DNA of 62,806 nt, the filler included, from Sphacelaria rigidula (taxonomy: Eukaryota), in NCBI GenBank assembly GCA_964200075.2. It is 7 parts of 7 records of this genome, joined end to end, with 100 filler letters (N's around TTAATTAATTAA, not from the genome) between each part and the next. Parts side by side here need not be neighbours in the genome. Positions count along the whole stretch, not along the records: positions 17,977 to 26,863 come from CAXNAA020009834.1; 6 more parts are not named here. The stretch is one strand, 5' to 3'. Position 1 is the first letter of the stretch. Each line of letters starts with the position of its first letter. The translations under genes were made by a program, and so were the position numbers. A model generated the notes under the pieces. That model made no database searches. It was not told where the DNA came from and was given only the letters and a program-made list of their open reading frames with translations. Of the stretch, positions 8,889 to 56,900 are shown one piece after another.

Positions 8889-8988
8889 NNNNNNNNNNNN
8901 NNNNNNNNNNNNNNNNNNNNNNNNNNNNNNNNTTAATTAATTAANNNNNNNNNNNNNNNNNNNNNNNNNNNNNNNNNNNNNNNNNNNN
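8889..8988. other. Artificial contig linker (44N-TTAATTAATTAA-44N)
   Basis: The identical 100-bp spacer with six-frame stops recurs six times. Confidence 0.99.
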
Positions 8989-14943: not shown

Positions 14944-17876
14944 GTGAGTCGGGGGAGTTGATCGTCTAGCTACTAGTTTCCACCCGTACGTTTGGTCTAC
15001 CTCACTTTCTGCCCTGTCCACGGCTCGAAATGGCTCCTGTACGACACTCTCTGTGCAGCAGCTGCACTGTACGGTTGTACTGGCTGTACAGCGAAGGACA
15101 GAAGATCGCAACAACAGTCAGTGCAACAACGAAAAATTACGACAGTGCAACAACAACAACAACAATAGTGCAGCACCAACAGTGCAGTCGGTGTAGACAA
15201 CGGTACAGACGGCTCCATTGCGTGATACCTCATCGGCTGCGTCGTACACTATTTTCAGGAAGCGAACAGTATACCCTATCGTGTAGACAGTCCCCCAGTG
15301 ATTTTCAATTTTTGAACTTTGAACGAAAACGTTCCGTACTAGACCAGCCAGGCGGAGTTTGATGTTGAACTTTGGACACTCCGCGCAGGAGCAAGTTTCA
15401 CATGAAGGTCGCGACAAAGAGCTGCAGTACTGTAGCTATTACGCCATATCCATTGTTTTGACACAACACAGAGCACGCAATCAACGCTAGCGCCTGCGTT
15501 GACTTCCCGGCAGTCGCTCTGAAGACAGGATGGATATAATATACTGTGCTGGTGGCTGCTGCAATTAAGTCGCATATGTGGAGACAGGCTCCTTTCAGCA
15601 CCTTGGACGCGAAACAATCCGAAACGACACATTCACGAGGCTGACATTGAAAGCCGGTACTGTATCCCCGACGCTACAGCTAAACAACTCCTCTCTGTTT
15701 GCAAGTACCCAACTTCACAGACAATATTTTGAGCGTCTCACGACTTCCACGCTCAATCTCTAGTCACTTATGTCATGGAGTCAGAGCGGCAGTTGCTGGT
15801 TACATATTTCCAGCGCTTGTGCTGTAGCTACCGTCGATCTGATAGTTGGCGCACAAAATATAAATGCCGATTTTGTATAAAGTTGAGCTGTACGGGGATG
15901 CATCGACGATAGGTGGGGTTGTGCGTTAGGATCATTTCACGTTGGTCAATGGCAATGCTTTACGTGGCCATGTATGGATACTTCAGAGCGACACCGTTGT
16001 AACATTGACAGCTAGGCTGTCTGATCGGGACCGAAAAGTCGTTGTTCTCAAAATCAGTTTCGAATTCCACCCCTGTGATTGGTCGGGTCGACTCAATCCC
16101 CCCAAAATATGCCCGAAAAACGTGCGCTACACGAGTACGCGGGAAAACTCATCCTCGATAGACTTAGGATTCAGGCATGTTTGGACGAACAAACGGTCCG
16201 TTCGCTTCAAGAGGAACATAGGCGTAGCGATCGACGGATGGGGGCGCATGCGAAGATATGCCGCACTATCCAATCCAACGGAACGTTTACCTGAAATCCT
16301 CATATCCCCCAGTTAAACAAGAGCATCAGGTCGAGCCGTACGAGTAGCTGGGTACGACAAGTTTATATTTAGTTCCAAGGGTCGGAGAAATAATGATTTG
16401 TCTGTAAATTACTTGGTTTTGGTACAATGAGTCGACTCGTGACGAATCAATCCCAGGCTATATTTCAGCGTTGCAACCCAGGTAAACGCAGCCCAGACAC
16501 GTGGAATGGCGCAAAAGTTGCGTGTATACCCCTTGGACCAGCGATCACCTTTTTTCTCCCTTTTGGGCAATCAGGCTGAAGAAATAATGAATTCGGTGAT
16601 TTTGAGTCGTAATGATTTGTGCTAACCGTGTTTAGTTCACATGTTACAATCTCTAACGCCACAACCATTGAACCGAAACATGACACCAGCCTCAGATCGC
16701 AACGGCACGATGTTACATAGCACTCCGCGAGGGCAAAATACCGACGCGTTGTGAGTTGTGAGTCTTATTCTTGTGTCGATGCGGAGAGACTGAGGCACCA
16801 TTTCCGGGGAGAAAGGGGTGTGGTTGTTGTGGCGTTCGTGGACGGCAAATGGGCAGGAAAAGAGCCGAATGTGTGGGCGCCATGGTTGGAGTTGGCGTGT
16901 TGATTCCCTTGCGCGCAGTGTGCCCCATCAGGTACAGTATGGAAAGCAATGCCCCAGGACAGGTACTTTCTGGGCCGACTGGGGGACCAGATAAGGTACA
17001 ATCGAAACATAATACCTAGATCAGGTATACCTGGCCGAAATTTGTCCTAGAAAGGGGAAGTAGTTTCTGGAGGCGAGACGTCCTTCTGCTCATGGCCATA
17101 TCTCTCAAGTAACATGTTTTTTTCTATTTTTTTTCGAGGCCCGAGTGCCGAGAAGCCCCCCCCGATTGCTGTGCGTGAAAAATTCGGAGCGAAGTCGTTC
17201 TAGATCGTGTGTGTTTGCTATTTTCGCGTGTCTGGAGATTCTTTGTACCTTTCTTGGGTAAAATACGATAAGGTATACCTTTTCTAGGCAATTGCTCATA
17301 TCTTTATCCATACACCACCTGATCAGACCACCGAACTTTGCCACGTATGGCGAAGGCAAATGTACACAGGTGCATCACGTTCCAATGCGATACTGTACAC
17401 TTTTGTCACAAAAGGAAAGAAGCTGGGGCAAGGACGAAACCACGAGCGGCTCAAATCATACCATGTTTGTGAGGAGAAGAGCTCAAGCTTGGTCTTAAAC
17501 AACAGCTGCTGGCATGCTGTACTAGTGTACTAATTTGCAGCGCTTTCACGACCTGGACAATGGATTACAGTCAAAAAGTGTGCTGCGTACAGTACCGAGT
17601 ATTGCGTCTAATGCAATGGACAGGAGATTCCATACTGTGCGCATTACATTTTTTGTCAACGTCATTTATTGTCCAGGGTGTGCGGCGGCGTTTGTTGTGC
17701 AGTACAGCGTACGATGTACAAGAAGGCATCTCAAGGCTGTCGTGTTCGTGAGCAATACGTCGGGGCGTGCGTACTCCCATGTGTGTGCAAATTATACGTG
17801 ATTTATATAGTCCTCCGTTCCCCGTCCTCCGACGAAGGCCATGACCGGTCTTGTCGGTACGGCGTGGGGAGGGTCT

Positions 17877-17976
17877 NNNNNNNNNNNNNNNNNNNNNNNN
17901 NNNNNNNNNNNNNNNNNNNNTTAATTAATTAANNNNNNNNNNNNNNNNNNNNNNNNNNNNNNNNNNNNNNNNNNNN
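17877..17976. other. Artificial contig linker
   Basis: 44N-TTAATTAATTAA-44N. Confidence 0.99.
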
Positions 17977-19292
17977 ATGGACACAATCCCGGGGAGCGGT
18001 TGATTCTCATTTCAAAATACGTTCTCATTTTTCTGGCAACCCTGTTAATCAGTACAGAACGGAACAGAAATTAACGGTTTAACGTTATTATTAGAAAGCA
18101 ACGAGCATCAAACGGTTTGCAAGTTGGAAAACGCGGAATTTCGTAGAGGAGAACCTATATGTTTCTCGGCGAGTGTTACATGCGATTGCAAAATCTCTGC
18201 CATCTTGCTTCTACACCTGACGGGAGGACAGGGAAGCCGCAGTTCCTCAGAGCACTAGAGATATTTGAATCATGTTTACGTAGTTGAAAAAAATGAAACG
18301 GCCTGTTTTTATTGAGATTGGGAAATTTGGTACATGTTGCTGCGCCGGGTGACCTCTTTGCAGACGCCAGCCAGTCCAGTAGAGCGACGAAAGCTAGCTA
18401 TGATCGGGTTTGCCTGCCGTACTGTCGCCAGCGTTGCTTGAAAGCCACAAGACCTTTGCGGTTGGCGGTTCACGGCGTGGGTGTCAAATGCAACGAAAAG
18501 TGGTTGATCATAGAGCACCCTCGTTCTTCGTGGGCTCATATGTCGCCCCAGGTGGTAACGCGTGACCTCGTCACATCGAAATTCATTCTTGAAAGCTTCT
18601 GTACCGAGGTGTTCACGCAGCCAGGGCGTGCTCCAGATTGCAGCATGGACGCACCCCTCTACACCACGCTCGCAACGGTAAGATCACTACCATAGGCATC
18701 TTTTTCCACTCCGCATGTCAACAAGGTCTCCACAGGTGTTTGATGTCTCATACACCCCTCCCCCCTCCAACTGGCGTCTCGCGCGCTGTTGTCGTTGGGC
18801 ACCCAGAGGGTCGCTCACATACATGTCGGGTAAAATCAACGATGAATACCACCCCCAAAGTTCAAATTGGATATATATGTTGTTTTCGCCGCAACACCGC
18901 CCTTCCTGGCATGTGTGTGACAGAGGATGGTACTAGCGGTGACGGGAGCATTGCCCTACTTTTTCAACGACATGTTTTTCAGCGCACAGAGGCGCGTCCT
19001 GTCCAAAAAGAGAGGCAGAGAAAAATCCATCTTCGCATTCGTGAGCTCGACAGGCAATTGTAAGACGAGAGAAAATCTCTCCGCAGCTCGATGTTTCGGC
19101 ACATGGAAAATTTGGCACATGCTGGTAAGATCGATGATGCCAGTCTCTCGGGAGTTTGGTAATCGCCAAGCGGGGACACGCAAAGGACGCGGGCGAGGAG
19201 CTTCCTCTCTGTCGTTGCTTCTCTCTCTGGTGATATCGTCACCGACACGCGTGTACACCGCATTCGTTTGGTACACCTAGCCACAGCTGCTT

Positions 19293-19302
19293 NNNNNNNN
19301 NN
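19293..19302. other. 10-N scaffold gap inside contig 3
   Basis: Run of 10 N with no linker core. Confidence 0.95.
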
Positions 19303-22300
19303 ATCTATGGCTTCGCTCGGTCGTGAATGTTTCGCGCCATCCCTGCAAAAAAGAAATGCTACTTTAACCTCATTTTTGAGACGGACCCCATTTTTTAGGA
19401 TTCGCCATGTGCGATTGGCCCAATTCGCCCGCATCAATGAGATACGGCTGTGACAGCTCAAGCCCGTCTCGAGGCTGGACCGGTTTGTATATACTGTACC
19501 TCTCCGAGCAAGACTACTTGGAATTGATGAAGGGCGGGCATCGGGGAGCTCAAGATGTTTCTGACGTTTCATCCCTTGAAAGAAGACTATACGTGAAATA
19601 AATAGAGGATTCAGGTTTGGGCGCTGACCATGTCCCAAATTGTAACAACTTGCCTCAGGGGGCGCTGAAGTTTCAGGCACGTCTAACGTTTTTTTCCGGG
19701 AAAATGTTTCAACCCTTCGACCGCCGACGTCATACTATTATGTAGGTCATCTACGGAATCGGCTACCGATTTCACTTGAAGAAATAATGCATTATCGAGA
19801 TGACCTGCACTTGCGGTAAAGGAATTGAAAACATGGGCGCACGCTCAAGGCGCATTTGGGCATATACCCATCTATATGCCTACACCCGTATCTCGAAATG
19901 TTCCGCATGTGGCGTGCCTGTCTCCACCCGCTAAAAAGCACCTGCAGCGATCCTCAAAGGCTAGAATCTACTCAAAGGTCCACTGCAGCTCAAGTTGTGT
20001 AGACAAGGCCCAAAACATCACAACTACCCCGTGTGTAGCCCTTGGCGTTCGCGAGCGATTCACTGTGGGGTCTCCGAAATAGTAAGACTTTTGTCAAAGC
20101 AATAGGCCCTAAGTTTAGATTTCACATTACCGAGTGCTCCGCGCCGGCGAAAGATCAGTGCACAACAGATATCACAAAAGGGAAGGTATATGCCGACGCA
20201 AGAGATGGAGGTTAAATATCCACGGGAGCGAGGCGTCTCATAAACAGTCTTGCCCGGAAGCGAGAGCCTCCTCCCTGATCGTCAATTTCCCTCTGCCGTG
20301 TCGCCGTGTTAAATGCCTTCGAGAGCTGAATTTCTCGCGGAATATGCATCGCGTCGTACCCTGCGACACCATGCCTGCTCCTACTGCCTTTAGCGGGGGG
20401 TTTCGTTAATGCAGGACCTAGCGCGCTCAAGCAGTTGGCGATTATCGCATGGAATCTCATTCTGCGGCTGCGGCGGCATACTGCATCGCGGGCGCCCCGC
20501 GGGAAATTGTCCTTTACGAAGTACACACCCCTCGGAATTATGAGTCACACTGCGAACATCTCCACTTCCGCGGAGGGAACCATGCCCCGACGCCCAAAGG
20601 TGTTACTTGACTCTTCACTGCCGAACCTCTGGAGCTGTCCCCACCCCACCTCTCAAAAAGCTCCATCAATCAGTTTCCATGCTACAATCCAACAGCGATA
20701 CAACAGTGGGTCAACTTACGACAGCACGATCGACAACGCTCTGGCATCACTCGGTAGCCGTCGTTCTCTTCCGCCTTCAAAACGAAGCACCCGAGAGTAA
20801 AAGCACGCCTCATGAAGGAATCAACCGGCGGCGCTGCCAAAAAGGCGACGAACGTCTGCTTGCAGAAGTGAAAACAATGGAGTGAAGCTCCGTCCAGAAA
20901 TTTATGGAAATTTAGTTGGTGTATATACTCGTGCGTCATCCCCAGCTTATACTACTATTATTATTACTATTAATACTACTGCTATCTCGGACACTAGCCC
21001 GATCTCTCGAAACCATGGTCACAGACATGGGTTTGTCTTTCAAATACCGTCCCTGCTATTCCTTACAAGAGATGGGCGTCCCAGTGCTTCTTCTGAGATT
21101 CCGAAACAATAAATAAAACAGCACCTACTGGCCTGATCCTACCCTCTTCGCCTCGCCAACATCGGTGGGCACCTGAAGGCAAACGTAGCACACGCGGTGA
21201 AAATGAAACGTCCGGGTAAAGGACCGAACGGGGGCGAGTCGTGTTCGATTAGTGTATGATGGGGTAACACCGCAGGACAGTTGGAAAAATGAGAGGGCAT
21301 CGCCACGCTCTAAGTACTGCACGCGCGCATCATGTCGTCAACACGCGGGACAGGGTTGCAGTCGTCGTTCTGGCAGATAAACTGGCATAAATGGTCAAAA
21401 TATGGGACAAACCAAAAGTTGCTTCTGAAAAGAGTTGCTCGAGTAACATTCGCAGCATATTTGACGAGCACGGCAGAAACAAATGCGCAGGCGGTGGCAG
21501 TGCTGCTGGCATACCCTGCTCAACTTGGTGCAGGAGGTAAATACAACAGGGCAAGAGGATATGGGGTGCACTCAGGGGGACTCAAGGTGTGTCTTAACAG
21601 GTCGGATATTCAGAAGGAGAACGCGTTGTTCAATCGAAGGAACCGTCAATTGAGGGCTACTTCGTTTCTGGTCATCCCCCCTGTTACGTTCGCTGGTCAG
21701 AGCCAATTTACTGCCATGTAAAGGCGCGTGAGGATGGGTCAAAAAAGAATCCTGGGCGATTGAACAGAAGTGGGATGGGGGGCGTTTGCCTCTGCTCCTG
21801 GTCACTGAATATGTTCCATGACGTTTGTGTGCAAGGCCATGAGCCCAAACCGCGAAAAAAAAAGAGAAAAATCGGTTCCGCTGCTCCCTCATGTTTTTAC
21901 ACTCATTTTCTTTCAAGATACAGAGACACTCGCAGACCCCACCACACCTACAGCTACCGACCCTGCCAACTGTAGAGCCACGTCAACACGCCACCCCGTT
22001 CACACTCGAATCGAGCGATATCAACCATGGATAAAATTGCTCGCAAGTGGAACAAACTCTACAGACAACAATGACCCAGCCGACTAGAGCACACGGCAGC
22101 TCATGGTATAGTCGTTCGCTTCTTCCCTCGTCTGGGCCCTCGTTTCTACATAAACGGCAAAACACACGGATCATTTTTTTATCCCTTGCTCCCCCTCCCC
22201 CCTCTCATTTAATTTCCCACCGCTGACACAACCACCCGATCATGACTCCCGTCTCATCCCTGCTCCCGCTCCCTCTCCCAGTACCACGGACCGGCCATAC

Positions 22301-22325
22301 TTGTACACAGCATGTTAGACAGAAA

Positions 22326-22678
22326 GAGAGGCGAAACGTGCCGTGGAACTTCGAGATGGAGAGCTACTGATGGTGGTCGACATCCAAACCGTTGACCTCC
22401 AAATTAGACAGGTCGCACGGATCGTCACCATCACCACTGCGGACGTGTGCACTAGAAGACATGATACAGGTAGGATGTAGGTCGTGATGGGTGGCATCCC
22501 ATCCCCCCCCACGATGTACATCCTACCTGTATCATGCCTCGTAAAATGGACGTGTGCGGCAGTAGCAGTGCCGATTCGTGTGCTCTGTCTGACTTGGAGA
22601 TCAACGGTTTGGATGTCGACCACCGTCGGCAGCTCTCCGTCGAAGGAGTTCAAAGTTTAAAGGCACGCTTCGCCTCTC
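22326..22678. repeat. ~350-bp foldback (long inverted repeat) inserted in the transposase remnant
   Basis: GAGAGGCGAAACGTGCC..GTGGTCGACATCCAAACCGTTGACCTCCAA..CATGATACAGGTAGGATGTA mirrored by TACATCCTACCTGTATCATG..TTGGAGATCAACGGTTTGGATGTCGACCAC..GGCACGCTTCGCCTCTC. Confidence 0.9.
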
Positions 22679-23416
22679 CATTTATGATAACATGTGAGAT
22701 GACGAACACTGAACAGAACCGGCAAGGCTCAGGGCTTGGTCCGTCTGTATCGCTGATACCGGAAATCGAAGCGATTGTCATTTAACACGCTGAGAGACTG
22801 GTACGTAGACGTAGAAATATAGCAGGCGTGCACAACGGCGGCTTGAAACATCCAGCCAGCTTACTGTTCGATTGCAGGCAGTGCGAGTGCTGAAGGTGGT
22901 ACAACCGGAACACTGTACTTTGTACAGTGATCATTCTAAGAGGGGTCGCATCGTTAACGTTATGAGCGCCGTCACAACATAAACGAGCAACTTCAGGGAG
23001 AAGAAACACCGCCTAAGCAACATAATCGAGCGGGAAGCGAAAATGAAGAAGCATGATCGATAGGTACTGACGGCCGTAACTCAGGGCATCTCCACCACAA
23101 GAACCATTAGCACAATCTTCTCTGAAAAGCAGGTGCCACCAAGATAGAGGAGCATAATATAACAGAAAAAAAAGTGACTCTTGAGTATATAACCCTCCAC
23201 GCGAAGGCCAACATGTTACGTAAAGGCGTCACAGAATGCTTCGAAATTTGTCGTTGTTTCCAAAACGTCTTCTCTGTGTGTTCTCGCACGCCCTCAAAAC
23301 CCATATTACAGCGCAAGATTGCTCGCAACAAAATACGTACAGCCATTGGCAACGCCGCTACAAATTCACGCGATGAGACAAAAGTCCCGCTTAATATCGT
23401 CTACAACTTTCGCCTG

Positions 23417-25092
23417 TCACCTCACATTTTCACAGTCCGTAGACGAGGCCGGGTCTTCGCGCACGACCAACTCGGCTTCTTGCACGGCGTCTTGAGAGTG
23501 CTGAGGCGGAACGGAGGTGGTGTCGACCGAAGCCTGCAAGCCCGCTAACCTTTGCTCTTCCTGAAATCTCTTCCGCAACGCGGTCAGTCTACGTTCGATG
23601 TGGCAGATCGTTTCTGCTCTCGTCCTCGCCATGAGGTCGAGCTTCGCTATCTTCTCTGCCGGAAAGCTCCGAGGAATCAGGTATTTCAAACTCTGTCGAC
23701 CATCGAACTCTGGGGACTCGCAACCGCGGACGGTCACCAGTGTGACGTCATTGTCACGCTCGCTGATCGCCGTCATTATATCCTGGGCGACTGTCCGCAA
23801 ATAATTCGCGTGCACATCCGGCAAGTTTTCCCCCTTCCGATATTCGAGTATCCACGCCTCTACTTCTGCCCGGCGAACAAGAGCTCCTTCACCCAATGCC
23901 ACCTGCACGCGCTCTGTGATGCGGCACACCAGCCGATCCTTTACTGTAAGAGAGGCTTCACTAACGGCGGGTATATGTCGCTGTTCCTCGACCTTCCGAC
24001 GCCTTGAGTCAGTGTAGTAGGAGCAGTAACAGGCATTGCACAATACACTGTTCGTATTCAGTGTCCTATTCAGCGTAGATACCAGCAACGTAGCACGACG
24101 GATTCCCGCTCCAACCGTGAAGAACTGCGTCATGTCATCGCACGCAGCTCCGACCTTGCGCCAATGAGATGGGGCACCGACTCTCTTCCGCTCCGGTTGT
24201 CCGCAGATATCGCACCTTATTCGGGATTTTACAGATGCGAAAGCCCTAAACAGGTGATAGAAACAGTCGTCTCTGAAGCAGAGGCAGTCCGATGTGGGCT
24301 TATACGCACTGCTGATCGGTGCTGGTAGCCGCGTTTCCCGGCTTTCCTTCCACCATTGCGTTGCCGGGAGGAGATTCTCCTGAGTGATGTGCCTGAAGTG
24401 AGTTGCGGGTCGATGACAGGCAGCGCATCGTCTGTCGCTCTGCGCGTGATTCCTTTGACACCATGCGCAGAAACCTACAGCCCAGGTGCTGGCCGACCCA
24501 CAGACAGCCTTGCCACACTGCGGCCGTCTACCTTGTCGCGGTTCGGAACTTGCCCTCGTACGACGCACAGATGACGACTGCTGCCTTTCGCCGGGCAGCA
24601 CGCTCGCGTGTTCTTGGTGACGCCCATCACGCGCCACCCGTCTCGACCGTAGCACGATGCCATAATTCAGGCGGGCCTCGTCCACCGTTGTCGAGCCTTC
24701 CGAGAGCCCCAGCGCCGATTCCGCAAGCGAGCTAGAGGGGCGAAGGTCGCTTTGTTCCGCGTTCGACGCCGCATCTTTCGTGTGCGCAACAGCGGCAGTC
24801 CTTGGCCCGCCCTGGTCGGAGGTCCGGAGCGACCCATCGTGTGATGTAGCGTCTAGAACGTCGGTCCCGATCCCATTGGGCCGGGTTCTCTTATGCTTCA
24901 ATTCCCGGTCCTTTGAACCAACCCGGCACCCTCCAGCACCCACAGGCGCATCCGCTCTCTTCTCACCACGCGCGGGCGGGCTTCCGCAGATTTCCGACGT
25001 GGGGTTGGCGTTGACCACTTGATCATCTACTTCCTCCGGACTCCCCCCCTCGCCTCGGAGAGAAGGAGGGCAAGTTGACACAGCGACACCGT
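23417..25092 (-). CDS. Uninterrupted ~555-codon exon encoding a Cys-rich (multi zinc-finger) protein with C-terminal coiled coil; likely N-terminal region of the Academ-like element
   Basis: ORF 23417..25081 contains CAWCQRNH..RCAACH, CLCFRDDC, CDICG and LCNACYC. Acceptor ccccag| lies at 25093, and an upstream phase-1 exon 25352-25280 (ttcag|...ACAG|gtaaat) joins in frame. Confidence 0.7.
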
Positions 25093-26070
25093 CTGGGGGT
25101 CAACGGCGAAAAAGAGGGACCGAGAGTCAACACTTGACCCTTGGAAGATAATCACAGAGTGACTTCCGATTGATCAAAGTTGGACAAAAACAAATGCACG
25201 GGGTAGCGTCCCCCGACGTCAATGGTGACCACAAGCCGCGGAACGACCGTATCGCAGCTCCTGCATAATAGCGATTTACCTGTGCGTTCGGTGGGTTCTT
25301 CTGCAGAGCATCCCGCCGCCGGGTGGCTATCTGCGAGGATTCCGGTCAGCACCTGAAGCGGCCATGAAACGTGGCCGAGCAAATGATTGTCAGGCGGGTC
25401 GACCAGAGAGGGAGGGGGGGGGGTGAACTCATGATCTTGCATACATGCCGTAATCATAAAACAAATGATCTAGCGTCCTTATGAAGCCGGGACGGCGCAC
25501 GCCGGAGATTTTTCACCGGACTGTCAGGAGGGATGGTGGGGGGGAGGGGGGTGGGTGGAGGGAGGTATGCATTCGGATAAGATGACAGCAGTGCGTACTT
25601 GCATATTGCGCGCGTTTTCCTCCTAGAATGTGTACGGTGGTTCTTGGCATATGGCCGCAAGATCGTTAGCACGCCGCACGCCGGCAGCTTGAAGAAAAAA
25701 TACCCAAAACGGAAATCAAACGGCTCGTATCAACTCGCGAAGGAAGTATTATAGCACCGCTTCTTCATACCGAACGCAAAACAAAGTGACACAAAAAAAC
25801 GCGGCTAAACCTGCAGCCACGAAGGTATCATGTAAGTCTTGAGAGCATTTTAGGAGGTGCGCGGTCCACGACCTAATCAAGTCATGGGACAACCGAATAA
25901 TCTCTCACCGGTGTCTCAGAGGAATCCACGGAAGCCTTGTTCAAGCTTGGGTCTATTCCGCTATCTTCTCCCGAGTGCGTATTCATGCTCACAGGTCTGC
26001 GATTGAACGGAGACAACGACCAGTGAAGCGAGGGTGATGTGATCGATTGCTTGTGACGCGTGTACAATTA

Positions 26071-26260
26071 GGGCCTGTCTCAGTTCATGAGTTTTCGATC
26101 GAAAAAGTGCGGTGGAAAACAAAAATCCTGATCTGATAGGTGATGATTTCAACCATCTTCAAAATGAACGACGATTGGTGAAATTACGATCTATCAGATC
26201 AAGATTTTTGTTTTCCACCGCACTTTTTCGATCGAAAACCCATGTGCTAAGAGAGGGGCC
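26071..26260. mobile_element. Palindromic Tourist-like (PIF/Harbinger) MITE, 190 bp
   Basis: Flanked by TTA on both sides. Ends GGGCCTGTCTC...GAGAGGGGCC. Arms CATGAGTTTTCGATCGAAAAAGTGCGGTGGAAAACAAAAATCCTGATCTGATAG are nearly perfectly inverted. Confidence 0.72.
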
Positions 26261-26544
26261 TTATAATCCGCAACGACGAACACCAAACGGTCGTCGGAGG
26301 ACAGACGTCCGCGACGTGAAGGTCGAACCAAATACGAGCGGGGCCGGCCAATAAGCCCACGTTCCTTCGAAACAGGATAGCTCTTTTCAGTTTTCCCAAA
26401 TCAGCCCGACGTGAGGATATCACTGTGAACTGCAGACCGATCTGCTGATGCACGCTCTGCCGTGAAGAAGGAAGTACAAAGAAAAATGTACCGCATAACA
26501 GATGATAGATCTCGACGACGGAACCAGATTCTGCTAAAACAAAG

Positions 26545-26635
26545 GGTTTCTGTCAGGATTCGAACTCAAGACCTTCCGCCCCTTGTGGGAGTCTTCAGCA
26601 CGCGTTAGACCAACAGGGTGCAGCGGCGACACACA
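26545..26635 (-). mobile_element. tRNA-derived SINE head
   Basis: Minus GTGTCGCCGCTGCACCCTGTTGGTCTAA...GAGTTCGAATCC (B box); no intact cloverleaf; related to 45235-45325 and 61059-61150. Confidence 0.55.
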
Positions 26636-26705
26636 TAAAGTGAAGTGCCCTGCCCAATCCAAGGGGTTTTGAGCGGAAATTTCAAAAGGACTTTCTACGC
26701 GCCAG

Positions 26706-26778
26706 TTCAAGATTCATCACTGAGGCAACCAGAATATCGTCGTGAAATATTCAAGATTCATCACTGAGGCAACCAGAT
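26706..26778 (+). repeat. 28-bp direct repeat
   Basis: TTCAAGATTCATCACTGAGGCAACCAGA occurs twice. Confidence 0.85.
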
Positions 26779-26863
26779 GGAAGGTTTGTGACGGGCGAAT
26801 ATTTCACGGTTAGGACGAATCATCACGGGTTCGAATCACCAAATCCACGATTTCTTCGGCCTG

Positions 26864-26963
26864 NNNNNNNNNNNNNNNNNNNNNNNNNNNNNNNNNNNNN
26901 NNNNNNNTTAATTAATTAANNNNNNNNNNNNNNNNNNNNNNNNNNNNNNNNNNNNNNNNNNNN
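26864..26963. other. Artificial contig linker
   Basis: 44N-TTAATTAATTAA-44N. Confidence 0.99.
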
Positions 26964-27930
26964 CAAACCTCCTACAATGTCCCCTAGCTCGACTCTGTAA
27001 ACGAGTCACCCTACCCATCCGGGCGTCGGTCCTCAGTGCAAAGTTGGTGTACCCTGTCCCTGGCCCACAAGAAAGCCTTCGAAGCAGAAGAATCCCCAAG
27101 TTGTCGGGGCTCGGATTCCCCATTTTTCAATAATTTACTTGCATTTTATGTAGGCCCGACTTTCCATCCCCCGTTTGTTTTTGGCACCATCCATCATAGT
27201 AAACCCTACTTGATAACACTAACACGTAGTGCTCGGGAGAAATTCGGCAATATGTACCCTACTATAAATGTGGTCATGTTCACAAGGCGACTGAATCTAG
27301 CAACGCTGTGGGACGAGAGGCGGAGCTGGAGGCATGAGTTCTGCGTATCCCTCTGTCGAAGCGGTACAAATGGGGATGAGGTCGTATGTAATCGATGGTA
27401 ACGAACAAGCCGTGTATAGGCAGCTGATCTCCGTCGCGGAGAACTGCCCAGAACATGTGAGGGGGTATTCAGCGGCAGCTGCTGCTGCACTCGGAAAGGC
27501 GTGCTGCACTGTACTGTGTCTGCGGCGCAACACCCATGCCGATCGAAGAGAATTTGTCGCTTGCAACAAAGAGGAAAATCGCGGCCCACCCCGGCCAAAA
27601 AGGGCTGTGCGGCAAGGTGATGGGGACAATATCCAAGGCCACAAGTGGCGGACGGCGGTTGCCACATCCTGTCGGAAGCTCTCCACCGCGACTCATACTG
27701 TTTGATACATGTGTACATTACGTGATGCGCACAACACCCGAATTGTAGTACAGACGGTTTGTACCTGCACCTGAAAATAGATTGGATGAAACTTTTGGTC
27801 TTCATGTAACCCTGCTGTTACATACACACGTTGGTCTTTAGCAACATGAAGGCACTGTTTCATGCATACGCAGGACACGTCATTCCTAACCAGCCTCACT
27901 GGTCGTTCTGGAGGCCCAGTCCCAAAAGGG
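26964..27930 (+). mobile_element. Non-autonomous piggyBac-like element, one end
   Basis: Terminates in GTCCCAAAAGGG|TTAA; internal 27030-27510 is homologous (reverse complement) to 35951-36430. Confidence 0.65.
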
Positions 27931-29966
27931 TTAATGGGTTTCGCCCGGAATCGGGAACACCTTCGTGGTTTTTATAATACTCGGCGAACAACTCGAAACA
28001 TCTTACAATTGGCCTCTGGAATCCAGGTTCCGTTTCGCCATAAACCCGTCCCAAACGTTTCCGTGCAGTCGGTCCAATAACATCTAAGAACCAACCAGAG
28101 CACCAGCAGCTTCCTAGCCAGCCCTTTCTCGCCTTTCGAATTTTCGATTCGTGTGGGCTGTCGCAGGTGTGTCACTTTTGAGTCACCTCATGTGCTGGTA
28201 TTGTTGTGCTGCGCATGTCACCAGTTTCGCTACGAGTTCTTACTACTCTGAACCAAGCCGACTGCCACACAGTAGAGGATCGATTGCCCGCATTGTAGCT
28301 TCGTTGCTGTCGTGTCCGTGGGTACCCGCGGTCCGCTTGTAATCTGTGCACCTCTCTTTCTCCACAAGTCGGCAACGTTGTTCAGCTGGAATTGAGTAGC
28401 AAGACGTCTTGTGTTTTTTAGAAACGATTGGGGGCGGGTAACACGCCTTGGCGCAGTCAACAGGGTCCACTAAAATCCGCACCACTGTCATCCTGTAGAT
28501 CATGATGCCCCCACTGCGGTCTATATGTCGCGTGCGATGCGCTCACCTCGCTCGTTATCCTACGAAATACAGTAGTCATGCCGTACGCAATCAACGCTGC
28601 TGCGTCTCTTATGATTTCGGTCAATCGTAGTGCGCATGTGCACTTCTCAGACCCTTTGGTTAGCTGTGTGCATGTCTATTTTTGTACTTGAAATGAGAGG
28701 GGTGAACGGATATCAAAGGCTACAACTCGCCGACTATTTGATGACAGTCCTCGTCGAAAAAACAACAAGGAATCCGGAGCGAATCGTTTTGCTTCGCAGT
28801 TGGGGCCCTCGTATGTTGCACTATTTTGAGTGATTTTGGCTACGTGATGCGCAAGAGAGAATACCAGAGATATGCATTCCTATATACACCGAACAAAGTG
28901 TGTGTGTTGCCAATATTCTTCGAATGGGCACAGTCAATCGGAAACCCTTTCAAAAAGAGCATCGCCGAGTAGCTCTGAAGGGATTGCCTGTACACCATCA
29001 CCCCAATGCTCCTGTGTCTCATGAAAAACGCCTGAAACATTTTCCCTTATTCTGTGTTAACAGCGAGTTTTAGCCAAATTTAGCCCATGCCAGACATATA
29101 CATATATGTAAATATATATAGCATGTGTGAGTGGTCAGTCCAACGCTTTTCAGCTACGGTCTGCCCAGATTTTTCAAGAAAACAGTGGTGACGTAGGATT
29201 CTATTCGTGTTTTGAAGGGAAGACTTCTGAATCTGGAAGTAATACCCCCTGCATTGTGTTAGAGTTGTTTAGCTTCATATGCATATACGACAGGCAGGAA
29301 ATTAAACGCATATACGACATGGGCAGACACAACTCGTTGTCACGTATCACGGATTCCCGAGCATCATTAAAAAAAAACATCATTATGTGCATTACAACAT
29401 TTTTTGACTATTTTTGGGAATTATCACGCGGTGGCGGGAGGGGAAGGGGAGGGATTTCCGTCCTAGATGACGGCATGCATGTGCAAAATCTACAACAACA
29501 AACCTATGCCCCTGCATTTCTACGGATAACGTGTCGTCGTGCCACCACAATATCGCCGGAAAATACCGACATGAGGATCATTGTCAGGAGTTCTCAGTGC
29601 TTCAAGAAATCTCCCAGAGCGGATGTTTTTGGGCAACATTATTTCGAAATCCCCCCCCCCCTACTGTGACATGTTTCTTGGTTTTAAAACAAGCAGGGTT
29701 TGTCGTGTTTTTTGCCGGGGTTGGTTGGATGGGGTCTACCCAAACGCCTGAGAGACGCAAGCCTGCCGAACGCGGAAAATGGCCAAACATGGCTATGCAT
29801 TTACGATTTGAAACAGCCTCCGTCCAGACTGCGTATCTGTGTCCACGGACTGTAAAGTAGCGCGTGCTACACGGGGGGTTTCGAAGCACATGTTCTCGCT
29901 AGAACGGGCATGTCCCTTGGCTGATGTGAGCATGCTGTCGTCGGTGTCGAACTCGCACTCACCCAG

Positions 29967-35850: not shown

Positions 35851-35950
35851 NNNNNNNNNNNNNNNNNNNNNNNNNNNNNNNNNNNNNNNNNNNNTTAATT
35901 AATTAANNNNNNNNNNNNNNNNNNNNNNNNNNNNNNNNNNNNNNNNNNNN
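35851..35950. other. Artificial contig linker
   Basis: 44N-TTAATTAATTAA-44N. Confidence 0.99.
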
Positions 35951-44836: not shown

Positions 44837-44936
44837 NNNNNNNNNNNNNNNNNNNNNNNNNNNNNNNNNNNNNNNNNNNNTTAATTAATTAANNNNNNNN
44901 NNNNNNNNNNNNNNNNNNNNNNNNNNNNNNNNNNNN
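44837..44936. other. Artificial contig linker
   Basis: 44N-TTAATTAATTAA-44N. Confidence 0.99.
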
Positions 44937-45355: not shown

Positions 45356-48300
45356 GCCTTCGCGCTCCCGTCTGGATGTCCACACGTTTGTTCTATCTAC
45401 CTCGCCGAACAGATCGCGCCCAGCGATCAACCCGACACAGACAGCGATAGCAGTGACTCTCATACATCAAGGGCGGGCCAAGGTAGGTTGAATAAGAAAA
45501 TCCCTGGACCTCGTCCTGTATGCCTTGACCGTCTACATTGCTAAATCGGTGCGCTGGGGACACAGGTGCTGTCCTGAAATCTTGAGCCTAACGGGAAGAA
45601 ACCCATTTTGCTCGCTTTGTGGGCTACCACTTTTCATTGTTGTGTGTGTGTGCCTTCATACCGTACCAATTTTACCCATCCTCTCCGGGAAATTCCCGCA
45701 CGCCCCCGATTTGTCGATGCAACCTCACCACAGTTGAACCACATCTCAAGCCTGATATATCGTGAACACTCCCCACTGCTTAATGCACACACATTCTCAC
45801 CAGGTGGTCGCGGCCGCGATTTCTCGGCAACGCGCCATATATCTGGCGTAGCCCTCTCAGGTGGCGGCAGAGTGGTCGGTGTCCGCTCTAGCCAGGTGAC
45901 AAGCTCCTCCTTGCGCGAGCCCATGATTCGCATGAACTCCAGGCTGGGGGCAGCGCACCCAGCCCGCAGTAAAACGACTATGGTTGCAGGACTAAGCAAC
46001 TTGACACCCGTGGGGCAGGCGGGGGCATCAGGGTTCAGTAGCCCTGCTGCCTGTGGGAGCCCCGTATCGTCTGGCGGCGGGGGCGGTGGTGGCATGACCG
46101 CCAACACTGCGGCGAACGCGGGGGGAAACCTGCTGGGTCAGCCTACCATAGCAAAATCGCGAACGATGGATCTCAGCTATCACATGTCGCATTCACTCAC
46201 ATTGTCGCCATCGCCGTCGGCAGCGACGAATGCGGCGAATGCGGTGGCGGCGGCGGCTGAGGGTGGTGGACGGGAAAGCCTTTCACCCCGGAGCGGGGGT
46301 GGCTCCTCACCTCGCTCGTTCGCTCCTCAGAGTGGAGAAAGTTCTACGCACCAAACGTCTTGGGACTCCGCCGCGGCAAGCACAGCCCCAACGCCATTAT
46401 TGCATTCACGCAAACATCATAGCACCGCAGCTTGGGGGATAAACTCGCACGAAGGGCAAGGTGGAGGAGGGGAAAGGGATAGCAGGGATGGTCAGCGTGG
46501 AAGCCTGCCGCCGCTCAGCCTCCCAAGCAGTCGAGAGGATGCCGACAGAGAACGAGAGCGCAGCCGGCGACACGATCGAGATCGAACCAGCATCAATCAC
46601 CACGGCGGGGGTTTGGGGTCCAACAGACGCCGTAGCTCCCTCGATGGTGAGTACGACGGCGATCTTGCGGGGATGCGCGGAGATGAACGAAAATCTGTAT
46701 CCTTGTCGCCGCGAACGTACACTGCAGACGACAACAGACACGAAGAAGAGTCTAACGTCGGTAGAGTAGAAGCGGGGATCGGAGTTGTGGGATCGAGTTC
46801 GTTGCATCCCTTAGGAGACGGAGTGGACGCGGGGGGGAGTGTGCACAATTCTAGGCGTGCGAGGCCGCCGTTTCCGCGGAGATCGTTAACGTCTCCAGCG
46901 AGTGCGTTCCATGCTCGGGATGGCGGCGCGAGTAGCTGGAACACGGAAAGGGACGGAGACTGTCAAGACAGCTGTGGTGATGACGACGACGGTGATGGTG
47001 GAAGGCGCGGTAAAGAGCAACATCGGTTACCGTCACCTCAGGGTGGTATGCTGAGATCAAAGGGCAAAAGGGACCCCGGGAAAGGCGAAGAACGGACGAC
47101 AAGCAACGGTAGAGCGGACAAGGATAACACGTCGTTTTTGTCTGGTTCACCGCGGGGCGAATGGGGTGGGGGAAGGTCACCGCCGCATTCAAGGTTGGAG
47201 GGCGTCGTCGGAGGTCCGTCACCACGTCATGTGAGCTTCAACGTAGACAAAAACGGACAGTGAGGGTTTGATAGTGCAAGTGTCACAGTATTTCGAGGTC
47301 GACGCGGTGCACTGGGTAGTGACATTCAGGTTTGGAGTTGTGTATCACTGCGTGCTTTTTTTAGACGCAGTATCGCAGGAATGCAACGCAAGGATGACGT
47401 GCGTGACAATCTAATGGTCGAGATATGCTGTCTGGGATGGAGCTTACATACCATAGTTATACCAGGCATATCTTGGAATGTTTCCCGTAGCGTAGACACC
47501 TATACATCCCGGTGATTCAGGCATACAGCTAGTCCGAGAAGGTTGGAAGCAAAAATTGACCCAAAAGGATTCCGGCAGTACATAACCTCACCTAGGTTAC
47601 AGCATAGAGGTGGAGGGAAATATTATGGCTCCAAAGTTGGTAAATTGCAACGGACATGCCTCCCTTACTACCCTCAACCCTCCGAGCCACATCCAATCAC
47701 TTTCTGGCGCTCCACTTAAATATCATCAACAGTTAGGGAAGCCAGTATTACGTTCATATTAGTACTGCGACAACTGGAAAACACTATCTCTACATTTCGC
47801 CCGTCATCACGGTGCCGGACACCCCGTGCGCAAGTTACGCTTCTTGGTAATTTGACTCCAACTTGTCGACAGGCGTACGGACCGTATACTTGTACTCTAT
47901 CGCCACTAGTGCCTGTTTGGTCTTTTTTTGCGGTAACTAAAAATCAGGATTACCATCTTCCGCATAAGATCCCAGGCGTAGGGCGGAAGGAGCTCGGCGT
48001 TTCTCTCGGCTCCTCCGCCGTAGACCCCGGGGTTCCGTCGCGGACACCGGGAAATCGAGCAGCTTCTCCCACCACGTTGACTCCGTTGCACTTGACACGG
48101 GCCACAGTGGAGCGTGTCGATCGCCGCGGCAGCAGCATCAGCAGCAATGACAGCAGAAACAGCAATAGAAGCAACCACGGCGGTCGTTACCACGGCGGTA
48201 ACTTGCGGGAGAATGAAGAAGATGAAAGGTGCGGGCCTTGTACCCACTGACATATGCACACCTACGGTTCATTCACGTCGCGTTTTGCTGTTCATCAGTG

Positions 48301-53821: not shown

Positions 53822-53921
53822 NNNNNNNNNNNNNNNNNNNNNNNNNNNNNNNNNNNNNNNNNNNNTTAATTAATTAANNNNNNNNNNNNNNNNNNNNNNN
53901 NNNNNNNNNNNNNNNNNNNNN
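53822..53921. other. Artificial contig linker
   Basis: 44N-TTAATTAATTAA-44N. Confidence 0.99.
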
Positions 53922-53991: not shown

Positions 53992-56900
53992 TGTTGAGGG
54001 GTTGTACTCATGATTAGCTGTTGCCATGCCAGGAGTTCCTCCACCTCTTCTATCACCGATGCTAGCTCGTCCCGGTCAGCTGCTGCTCTCGTCGCACTGC
54101 GCGTGCGGCCTGCCATTTGGGAGGCAGAAGCAACTCATCGTCGAGTGCAAGACAGTGTAGCTCAGTCCTTGGGAGTTCGAGAGCTTCACCGCCCCCCCCG
54201 TCGCTGTGCTCGGAGGTGTCTACGGTTGTTGGCGGCAATGCTGACGGGGTAGTTGATGGTGAGACCGCAGGTGAGTGCGGTGTCGGCGATGCTGATGGCT
54301 GTTTCGGCGGTGTTGGCGTAGTCGGCGTCGCTGGTGGTGTTGCGGGTGCTGCTGCTGTCAGCGCTGCTGCCGTAGCCGGCGCTGCTGATGTCGATGTTGT
54401 CGGCGCTGCTGCTGTCGGCATGGACGGTGGTGTTGTCGGCGCCACCGACGGCGGTGGTGTAGGCGGCGCCGAGCCCCGGTCATCGATGGGATCTTGAACG
54501 GAGTTCCGTAAAATCCCCCCGCCTTCGCCGCCTTTGCGATGAGACGGCGAAGGCATTTAACCCCCCCCGCCATCAGTGGGGGTTCGCGGTGTGGTGTCGT
54601 CTGCCCTCCCTTCGGAGTTGGGTAGCAAGAACAACACACGATGAAAACCGCGTGATGAAGCGCCCACGGCTGGGGTTTGCTCCATGGACTCGCTGCCGGT
54701 CGGCCCTCCTTCGATGTGGTCATCCCTCGCTCCGCCGGGCGTCGGGATCGCTTGTGCTCGTGTGTCTGTTGATTTGGGGATGGACCATCGTAGTCCTTTC
54801 CCTTCCGAGCACCCTCGGCAGGGTCTCATCTTGCCGCTCAGCTCCACTCCGAGCTGCTTGACGGTCTGCCAGAGTAGGTCCTCATGGGCGTGTGCATGAG
54901 AACAGTGGAAGTCGTTGATATCAACAACTCGGGGGTTAGATGGTGCCCCCGGGGCAATCACAGCATCACTGCCGGGACCTATTCGGTGGGCAAACGCTTT
55001 GAGGAGTCTGTGCTCACCGGGGATATTCGGGGTGTTGCCTGATTTCATCTCAACCCGCAAGCCCTCCCTCCACCCAGTGGAGGTGTGGTCTGCGTTGAAG
55101 ATCCTAGTCAATGACAAAAGATAGTGACGGATGCCTGGTGCGTGGTCTACATTTTTCATATCTAAAGCTACATCACGTCCGTCAGATCGAAAAGCGAGAG
55201 TCAAATTTCCTCTCCCTACGATCGGGTAAGTACCGCCGCCCGCACACCGCAGTACCCTACCCCTGAATTCGGTTATCCGTCTTCTTGCTCGAATCTGGCG
55301 AAAAATGCTGGATTGCTCCCGTGTCAAACACCCACGGTTCGCCCCCATCTGGCTGCTCTACACCCCCCTTCTCAATCACAAACGCACACTCGCCTTTGGT
55401 GTCTTCGGCCTTCATCATGCCGATGCTGGTGAACGCCTCCGCATCAGCATCCGAGTAGATGAAGTCGTCGTCGACGAAGTCACTCACCAAGCCCATCGCT
55501 ATCATCACGTCCTCTCCAGTCTTCGGGCAGTCGAGCAGCTGATGCCCCCTCTTGCCGCATTTGCCGCACTACCTGCCCGGACATTCTCTCGACCGATGTG
55601 TCGTCATCTTCGACAAATGTGGCATGGCCATGTCGTCCCAGCTCCCGCTTGGCTCTTGTACGGTGAATTCAGCGACTGGCTGTTTTTGCCCTGGTCCCCG
55701 ACGCCACCGCGACCTGGATCCTGGTTCTTCCCCAGTTTTCTTCTCTGGCGTGAGTCGTTAGGTTTGCCGGGCTGGCCCTTGGCAGCAAGGGCCTGGTCGC
55801 CTGAAGAAGTCTTCTTCCCCTTGGCGAGTTTCTGCTTTAAAAGTATCGATTCGAAACGTTTTCGGATCAACCCCACCACGATTTGCCTCGTGAGCGGGTC
55901 CTCCCGCTCCTTCAGCTCTTGCTTCTGGAAGTTATACTCCGTGGGGAGGGCGTTGACAATTTTGAGGAGGGGTTGGGCCTCCGTCAGGTTGATGGTGTCA
56001 TACGATCTCAACTACCTTACCACTTCTTCAACCTCGATCAGTTTTTGAATCGGGTCATCACGAACGCTAATCTTCCCATGATCATACTTTTCCAGCAGTG
56101 CTAATCTACCCTCGTTGGTCCTGGGCCCTCGTTGGTCCTGGGATCGTAGAAGTCGTTCGATTCACGCCATACAGCTGCAGGGGAAGGAAATCGAAAGAGA
56201 ATGTCTCAGTCCCGTTTGTGGTGCAGGCTCGCCACCAACATATGCCTTGCTCTAATGTTTGCGGCTACAATGTTTTCCCCTGTCTCACCTCCAGGAAACG
56301 CACGGACAGTTCCGTGTTCCCAATCTCCACGTCGTGCAAACTATCGTCCGACATGGTGAATACCCAATCAAATCCCTCGCTCCTCGCCAAATTGGTTAGC
56401 TCGTGTTTATATTGGGAGAATTGCAAACTCTTCCCAGCAACATTCGGAGCAGTAGCCTTGAAAACTGGCACGCCCACAACGTCTTGCATACTTGGTCGAT
56501 CATGACCGCACTCAGCGATAGACTCACGTGCGGGGCCAATATCCCCTTGCTCCGTCGCTTCCGGCCCTGTGGTCGCTCCCACTCGTGGCTCCCTACTCGC
56601 CATCGCGGCTGCGTCGTCGACCTTGAGATGTGCTGGGGTTGGCTGAGCTATCAGCCATGTCATCTTGTGTTGCTTGATATCTTCCGGGAGAGGCTTCGCT
56701 CTCGATGACGCCGCTCCACCGCGCCCCCCCGAACTTGTGTTTTTTACTACCATCAACTCTACTCTGCAACACAGTTTGTTTGGACTTTACGTCTCTATCT
56801 AGATCAGTCAATGTATTAAATTGACTCCTGAAATGGCTCATCATGCTCTCATATTGAGCTGCCAGTCTATCTGCCTTCGCTACAGGAAAGGAAGCACCAC

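Follow-up and report, generated by a model that had tools for sequence, protein, structure and literature searches.

The KP-type repressors of the P element are truncated, DNA-binding-only transposase products. Here we describe a gene of Sphacelaria rigidula whose predicted product invites comparison with them. It lies in a window of 62,806 nucleotides (nt), the whole stretch of DNA that was analysed, on a contig of 8887 nt (positions 17977-26863) that holds an open frame of 560 codons, and this frame contains exon 3 of a real, spliced, transcribed four-exon gene. As in the KP-type case, the N-terminal part, which would serve DNA binding and oligomerisation, appears to be kept and the catalytic part lost, the element is multi-copy and the copy behind the product would be a defective one, and by the same analogy its expected action would be through site occupancy or through mixing with full-length protein. 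The two also differ: the module here combines a Cys/His cluster with a winged helix, whereas that of the KP-type products is a THAP domain, and here a new splice, reaching an exon further downstream, completes the truncation.

A second point of comparison is the Academ superfamily, to which the original prediction for this locus, made from the sequence alone, had likened the element: it saw in the open frame an intact zinc-finger exon at the head of an otherwise destroyed Academ-like transposon, and proposed that purifying selection had preserved this exon as a host gene. The likeness extends to size, Academ elements being large and their proteins longer than 1000 amino acids (aa); a link through DUF6589 (PF20231), the C-terminal domain of the relatives described below, is a lead only. 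Passages of PMC5751038 describe Academ as most abundant, among fungal elements, in Pucciniomycotina, and its RNase H-like domain as matching no Pfam family in 2017; work on the rust fungus Puccinia striiformis (bioRxiv 10.1101/2025.10.24.684071) reports DUF6589 to be enriched in pathogenic fungi. Our literature search returned no relevant paper tying Academ to brown algae and none joining an Academ transposase with XPG, and transposon domestication in brown algae appears essentially undescribed, a phrase search of the literature giving only a co-mention.

We find that the gene is a truncated member of a brown-algal family that joins a zinc/winged-helix module to DUF6589, and that nothing yet shows its adoption by the host. 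The reading to which we lean, if only slightly, is that this copy of a multi-copy, transposon-like family has lost its 3' part and is still transcribed and correctly spliced, with a DNA-binding-only product. The earlier inference was half right: the exon is derived from such a family and the gene is truncated, but the key argument, a step change in decay just past the exon, fails.

A spliced and transcribed gene

The window is a chain of seven contig blocks of 8885-8888 nt, placed in length order and separated by spacers of the form N44-TTAATTAATTAA-N44 (8889-8988, 17877-17976, 26864-26963, 35851-35950, 44837-44936 and 53822-53921), and therefore features of different blocks are not physical neighbours. 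The frame of interest is open from stop to stop at 23420-25099 on the minus strand, with a TGA at 23419-23417, and bears out the run of about 1.67 kb without a stop or frameshift that had first drawn attention to the locus. Only two frames reach 560-561 codons among the 2063 window frames of at least 20 aa, the next reaching 272, and in shuffles of the frame's own letters (n=2000) the longest open run has a mean of 96 codons and a maximum of at most 295. Its first ATG does not come before codon 323, and so the frame cannot stand alone.

To place it within a transcript, we compared four public sequencing runs over 20900-26300, one DNA-like (X1) and three RNA-like and from one study (X6, X7 and X8); the RNA label of X6-X9 is a guess, none of these runs being recorded as RNA, and uncovered parts of introns are not counted as evidence. 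Each of X6, X7 and X8 yields one contig (2693, 2498 and 2804 nt, respectively; depth ~38-40) that carries all three joints, connecting 20900-21169, 23423-25092, 25280-25349 and 25906-25999, with two of the cuts ambiguous by 3 nt. Every skipped part has CT..AC ends when read on the plus strand, corresponding to GT..AG in the minus-strand direction of the gene, and the intron bins have a depth of 0-13 in the three RNA-like runs. The contigs of X1 are collinear with the window and contain none of the three splice joints. Three canonical introns are thus absent from the RNA-like runs and kept in the DNA run, which is the pattern of complementary DNA, and the spliced form itself argues that X6-X8 are RNA.

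The spliced coding sequence, 25986-25909 + 25352-25280 + 25092-23426 + 21172-21125, translates exactly to CAM9640343.1 (P0060), a 621-aa "unnamed protein product" of S. rigidula. All parts of the gene lie on the minus strand. Exon 1 (25909-25999), seen in the contigs of X6, X7 and X8, has its ATG at 25986-25984 and is coding over 25986-25909; it is followed by intron 1 (25353-25908; 556 nt, GTGAGA...CAG), whose joint at 25349/25906 is ambiguous by 3 nt. Exon 2 (25280-25352; 73 nt, VLTGILADSHPAAGCSAEEPTERT) is present in both the spliced contigs and the public model, and intron 2 (25093-25279; 187 nt, GTAAAT...CAG) is removed at the joint 25092/25280 in X6, X7 and X8, not in X1. The main exon, exon 3 (23426-25092; 1667 nt), lies within the stop-to-stop frame, and its donor, GTGAGG (23426/23425), stands 6 nt before the TGA and takes its GT from the Val codon of '...ENV'; an isoform in which intron 3 is kept is possible and would end in '...CENVR*'. 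Intron 3 (21173-23425; 2253 nt, GTGAGG...CAG; joint 21169/23423, ambiguous by 3 nt) leads to exon 4, whose coding part (21125-21172) consists of 15 codons, VPTDVGEAKRVGSGQ, and a stop.

The original prediction had thus placed the acceptor at 25352, the donor at 25280 and the acceptor at 25092 on exactly the sites used in the spliced contigs and in CAM9640343.1, and the joint 25280/25092, for which it had proposed an RNA check, is seen in X6, X7 and X8. Its two outer limits were wrong. The ATGCAA micro-exon that it offered at 25604-25599, with a junction 25599/25352, is not used, the upstream coding exon being 25986-25909 with its ATG at 25986, and the main exon does not run to its stop, being spliced 6 nt before the TGA to the 15-codon terminal exon. 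We also considered a micro-intron at 23425-23401 (25 nt, GT..AG), which would restore the frame of the relic described below; we reject it because a spliceosomal intron could not be that short and because the contigs do not show it.

At their 5' end the transcript contigs carry, beyond 25999, a further 85-86 letters that are found nowhere in the window and that stem either from a 5' exon situated on a different contig or from a false join at the neighbouring repeat. At the other end the 3' untranslated region extends 387-614 nt below 20900.

Depth in the DNA run establishes the copy number of the exon. The main exon has a depth of 25.2, the unique flanks 22.4-25.8 and repeats 800-50,000; the exon is single copy, as the original prediction had asked of a host gene, and it occurs only once in the window. 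Diverged paralogues occur in S. rigidula at 35-46% identity.

Several repeats lie in and around the gene. Just upstream of exon 1, at 26074-26256, there is a near-perfect hairpin with 87-nt arms, 85% complementary and 9 nt apart, at a DNA-run depth of ~15,000-23,000 against ~25 on unique sequence, which looks like a very high-copy repeat of the miniature inverted-repeat transposable element (MITE) type. Intron 1 contains a short high-copy repeat near 25406-25442 (DNA-run bins at a depth of 1117-1745). Inside intron 3 there is a palindrome at 22355-22641 with 137-nt arms, 75% complementary and 13 nt apart, and beside it a repeat at ~22785-22955 (DNA depth 110-823). An extremely high-copy repeat at 20900-21066 overlaps the 3' untranslated region (DNA depth 50,379 in the bin 20900-21080), and the transcript may end in repeat-derived sequence.

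A brown-algal family with DUF6589

Word-indexed protein searches returned only the gene's own cluster, and it was an exhaustive search that exposed the family, with 58 representatives at an expectation value (E) of at most 1e-3, 25 of those at or below 1e-10, and a phmmer match to P0003 at E 1e-84. Named members come from S. rigidula itself (two further proteins), several Ectocarpus species, Ascophyllum nodosum and Scytosiphon promiscuus. One 11-member 90% cluster includes proteins of 1302 aa, which continue past the end of the S. rigidula protein, and with residues 520-1302 of one of these as the query we recover five proteins outside its own cluster, four of which are annotated with DUF6589. 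When these five long relatives are scanned for the domain, three score above the Pfam cut-off of 27 (42.2, 29.0 and 27.7 bits) and two below it (24.1 and 22.1), and in a protein atlas the relative P0080 adjoins DUF6589 clusters, mostly basidiomycete, with scores of 0.95-0.96. The Pfam DUF6589 proteins are mostly from Basidiomycota; their domain is present in the full-length relatives and absent from our gene, which has the cluster of 16 Cys/His residues, the winged helix and the long helix. The claim that the exon belongs to a transposon-like multi-copy family is borne out by this search, and so is the claim that the catalytic-type half is missing, there being no DUF6589 in the window and DUF6589 in the full-length relatives. 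As to what DUF6589 is, a structure modelled for the relative P0078 from 11 sequences is of low confidence (predicted local distance difference test, pLDDT, 38.5), and the DUF6589 profile of P0078 gives 0 matches at E <= 10 against the sequences of solved structures.

The copy pattern suggests a family that is mobile or at least amplifying. In Ectocarpus, three proteins that cluster together at 90% come from three separate contigs; numerous fragments align to one and the same region of the query and are only 30-49% identical among themselves; and the tree puts two Scytosiphon members into separate deep clades, so that one species has two deep lineages. An account without mobility would make this a lineage-specific host multigene family of DNA-binding proteins, of which our gene is a short paralogue, and it fits the presence of introns and annotated gene models in several species, the lack of any recognised transposase family of Pfam (the C-terminal domain being a domain of unknown function), and the fact that neither terminal inverted repeats nor target-site duplications were seen in 15000-29000. 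It sits badly with near-identical Ectocarpus copies on different contigs and an 11-member 90% cluster, with the many fragmentary copies at 30-49%, with two deep lineages in one species, with DUF6589 clusters expanded in fungi and with pseudogene-type lesions in this copy, and we regard it as quite improbable.

The relationship to one S. rigidula paralogue also bears on the origin of the 5' end. CAM9449743.1 aligns from residue 1 through exons 1-3, with 37% identity over 203 aa, and because these exons are shared from the first residue the 5' exons, and presumably the promoter, are the element's own.

Turning to the protein, an AlphaFold2 model built on a 59-sequence alignment has a mean pLDDT of 67.8 and a predicted template modelling score (pTM) of 0.42, with aa 1-240 disordered and block pLDDT mostly 84-97 over aa 251-600. 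Column conservation in the same alignment defines a Cys/His cluster at aa 243-405 of 621 (24029-24517, minus strand), with 16 ligands: C243, C248, C259, C262, H266, C273, C276, H277, H285, C320, C322, C327, C344, C347, C402 and C405. Each of these columns reaches a conservation of >=75% in the family, and this protein has retained every one of the 16; the motifs CAWC, CAACH, CLCFRDDC, CDIC, CNAC and CGKAVCG coincide with the conserved Cys/His columns, so the several CxxC pairs noted earlier (CAWC, CAACH, CLCFRDDC, CDIC, CNAC) are indeed present. The arrangement is predicted to be of a four-zinc type.

The cluster is followed by a predicted winged-helix-like domain at aa 430-527 (23663-23956, minus strand; AlphaFold2 and VIA-align). 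The best structural match of aa 435-543 is the extended winged helix of TFIIIC tauB (8cli_A; Z 8.6, root-mean-square deviation 3.1, 102 aa), and many other winged-helix chains match at Z 5-6.8. The likeness to TFIIIC tauB (8cli_A, 5aim_B) is one of shared fold only, with an identity of 7-9% and a Z in the common range, and implies no family membership. Two long helices are then predicted by AlphaFold2 at aa 529-570 and 580-595 (23459-23659, minus strand). The coiled coil of the original prediction holds up in part: a 42-residue helix is indeed predicted at aa 529-570, but heptad support is weak, the best register placing hydrophobic residues at 9 of 12 a/d positions, a score reached by 3.3% of shuffles, and a coiled coil at aa 529-595 is possible on this model. 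The protein probably binds DNA, possibly as a dimer.

Other searches place the module in no described family. Pfam gives for the whole protein only a chance-level match to CCP_MauG (E 0.096), the N-terminal zinc/winged-helix module matching no Pfam family, and its profile run against the sequences of solved structures gives 4 chance-level matches (E 1.6-3.6) to coiled-coil constructs and UvrB. Foldseek with the gene's model finds no match at E <= 0.001, and a protein atlas feature search with aa 240-600 finds no usable match, its structure rows having template modelling (TM) scores of at most 0.33.

Truncation, selection and possible host use

The original prediction rested on what lies downstream of the main exon: an element of some 5 kb, ridden with stops and frameshifts, next to an exon that is free of them. 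The stops are there, the three frames of 17977-23416 having 60, 64 and 78 of them, but the homology that would make them a destroyed transposon is not. In tblastn searches with seven long relatives, and then with 80 other proteins from the family search, family homology is confined to the interval between 25096 and 23149. When the whole window, cut into 2415 six-frame pieces, is searched with profiles built from the C-terminal parts of the relatives, only the piece 23110-23400 is picked out (E 0.014 and 0.25), with no match of DUF6589 type. A Pfam search of 44 neighbouring frames (30 minus, 14 plus) finds nothing credible, the matches to WBP-1 (E 0.0028), FWWh (E 0.02) and Ntox11 (E 0.098) all falling under the cut-off, and there is no DDE-type or transposase-type domain in those frames by Pfam or in the whole window by the C-terminal profiles. 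A destroyed 5-kb transposon is therefore unsupported, because DUF6589 is absent and family homology stops ~300 nt past the donor: apart from a lightly damaged stretch at its beginning, the C-terminal half has not decayed but is missing.

This stretch is a relic of the ancestral frame, ~300 nt long (23110-23419, minus strand) and now part of intron 3, which we recognise by tblastn and by comparison with the relatives. Where the relatives read '...(K/R)NV(S/R)(R/L/G)...', the window has '...ENVR' and then the TGA; eleven codons past it, near 23391, there is a 1-nt frameshift, after which 97 codons are open (23400-23110). In tblastn the relic has 37% identity to P0003 over 43 aa and 27.5% to P0015 over 80 aa, the latter match reaching 23149, and it keeps an alignable motif, 'RE(Y/F)..LP..(L/V)R....MGF'. 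Across a conserved 24-residue motif, relic and P0003 share 11 positions and P0015 and P0003 share 15, and six of the differences in the relic are between similar residues (Y/F, L/V, F/L, V/I, F/L and D/N). With one TGA, one 1-nt frameshift and 97 open codons, the relic does not display the step change in decay on which the argument for selection had depended.

Such lesions also bear on whether the gene is truncated at all. In principle it could be complete, with DUF6589 exons on another contig or in another isoform and the truncation an artefact of an 8.9-kb contig; the contig is tiny and flanked by repeats, the 85 transcript letters at the 5' end lie off the window, and assembled contigs drop rare isoforms. 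We nonetheless consider this very improbable. Four exons plus untranslated regions fully explain the RNA contigs, there is no room for more than 2 kb of DUF6589 coding sequence because these contigs stop 15 codons into exon 4, and immediately beyond the donor the old frame is broken by a TGA and then by a frameshift.

The truncated-copy reading, which we slightly favour, runs as follows. Full-length members combine the N-terminal module with a C-terminal DUF6589, presumed to be the catalytic or transposition part, and this copy has lost the latter. A GTGAGG within the old coding sequence, 6 nt before the nonsense codon, now serves as the donor for a splice to a 15-codon exon 2.25 kb away, and the product is a protein of 621 aa in which a disordered stretch precedes a Cys/His cluster of four-zinc type, followed by a winged helix and then a long helix. 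The gene is probably expressed by way of 5' exons and a promoter that belong to the element itself, since the paralogue shares exons 1-2. The truncation seems recent, because the relic is only lightly damaged and otherwise well kept, and if it is recent, the open 1.7-kb frame would be inherited intactness, to be expected without selection. Any activity would most likely consist, by analogy with the KP-type products, in occupying the family's binding sites without catalysis or in mixing with full-length protein.

A number of points weigh against this reading. The evidence from RNA amounts to three runs of one study with a guessed label, and the public model CAM9640343.1 may rest on the same data as the RNA contigs. 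Mobility of the family is read from the copy pattern only; in 15000-29000 there are no terminal repeats or target duplications, just the two local palindromes and spacer artefacts, although a truncated copy need not keep both ends. "Recent" is a qualitative term here. Constraint would account for the protein equally well: in a leave-one-out comparison it keeps 38 of 42 conserved columns (rank 18 of 51) in addition to its 16 of 16 Cys/His, and its terminal branch, at 0.54, is shorter than the median of the family (0.69). The two disabling lesions are confined to the final ~15% of the stretch with homology, a position that uniform placement would give in ~2% of cases (our own arithmetic, with the choice of frame ignored), and the splicing neatly skips the TGA.

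The last of these points lead to domestication, in which loss of the catalytic half would have been followed by purifying selection on the DNA-binding module, maintaining it as a host regulator or as a repressor of the family. It would explain why the gene is expressed and spliced to a new 3' end past the stop, and it agrees with a single copy by DNA depth, with the retained Cys/His residues and conserved columns, with a confident fold over aa 251-600, with a branch that is not lengthened and with lesions that both lie downstream of the donor. Other results do not fit it. In collections that take in several brown-algal proteomes, no relative is more than ~52% identical, the best non-self match being 42% over a long match and at most 52% on fragments; the 5' exons are those of the element; the sole variant known is a non-synonymous one, S to L in P0002; and the relic has barely decayed, which would leave little time for selection to act. 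On this balance we hold domestication to be somewhat unlikely. A more specific form of it would be a young, lineage-specific exaptation, in which a cryptic donor captured a downstream exon and so created a DNA-binding-only derivative of a DUF6589-type element, kept by Sphacelaria either to repress the family or to serve as a new transcription factor, with DUF6589 possibly being the Academ catalytic domain under another name; this we consider unlikely.

What the gene means depends on which of these applies. If the truncated protein is functional, the locus would catch in the act the turning of a transposon DNA-binding module into a host or regulatory gene in brown algae. If it is only a transcribed relic, it represents an ordinary annotation caveat, and the gene model is one to be flagged as repeat-derived. 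In either case the family and the role of DUF6589 are a more interesting thread than the gene itself: the family offers a concrete handle on that role, with a zinc/winged-helix module linked to DUF6589, multiple copies in several brown algae and kin expanded in fungi.

Other frames in the window

The second frame to reach such a length, 561 codons at 45578-47260 on the plus strand, is on a different contig. It is rich in G, S and R and apparently of low complexity, has no Pfam match and no similarity to the 560-codon frame, and may represent one exon of a gene for a disordered host protein. On the contig of the gene itself, a gap of 10 N at 19293-19302 breaks a frame of 251 codons (18982-19734, minus strand) for which Pfam gives no match. 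In the last contig, a frame of 266 codons at 54560-55357 on the minus strand has a weak match to a Pol polyprotein beta-barrel (PF22936; E 0.0014, under the cut-off) and may be the remnant of a retroelement.

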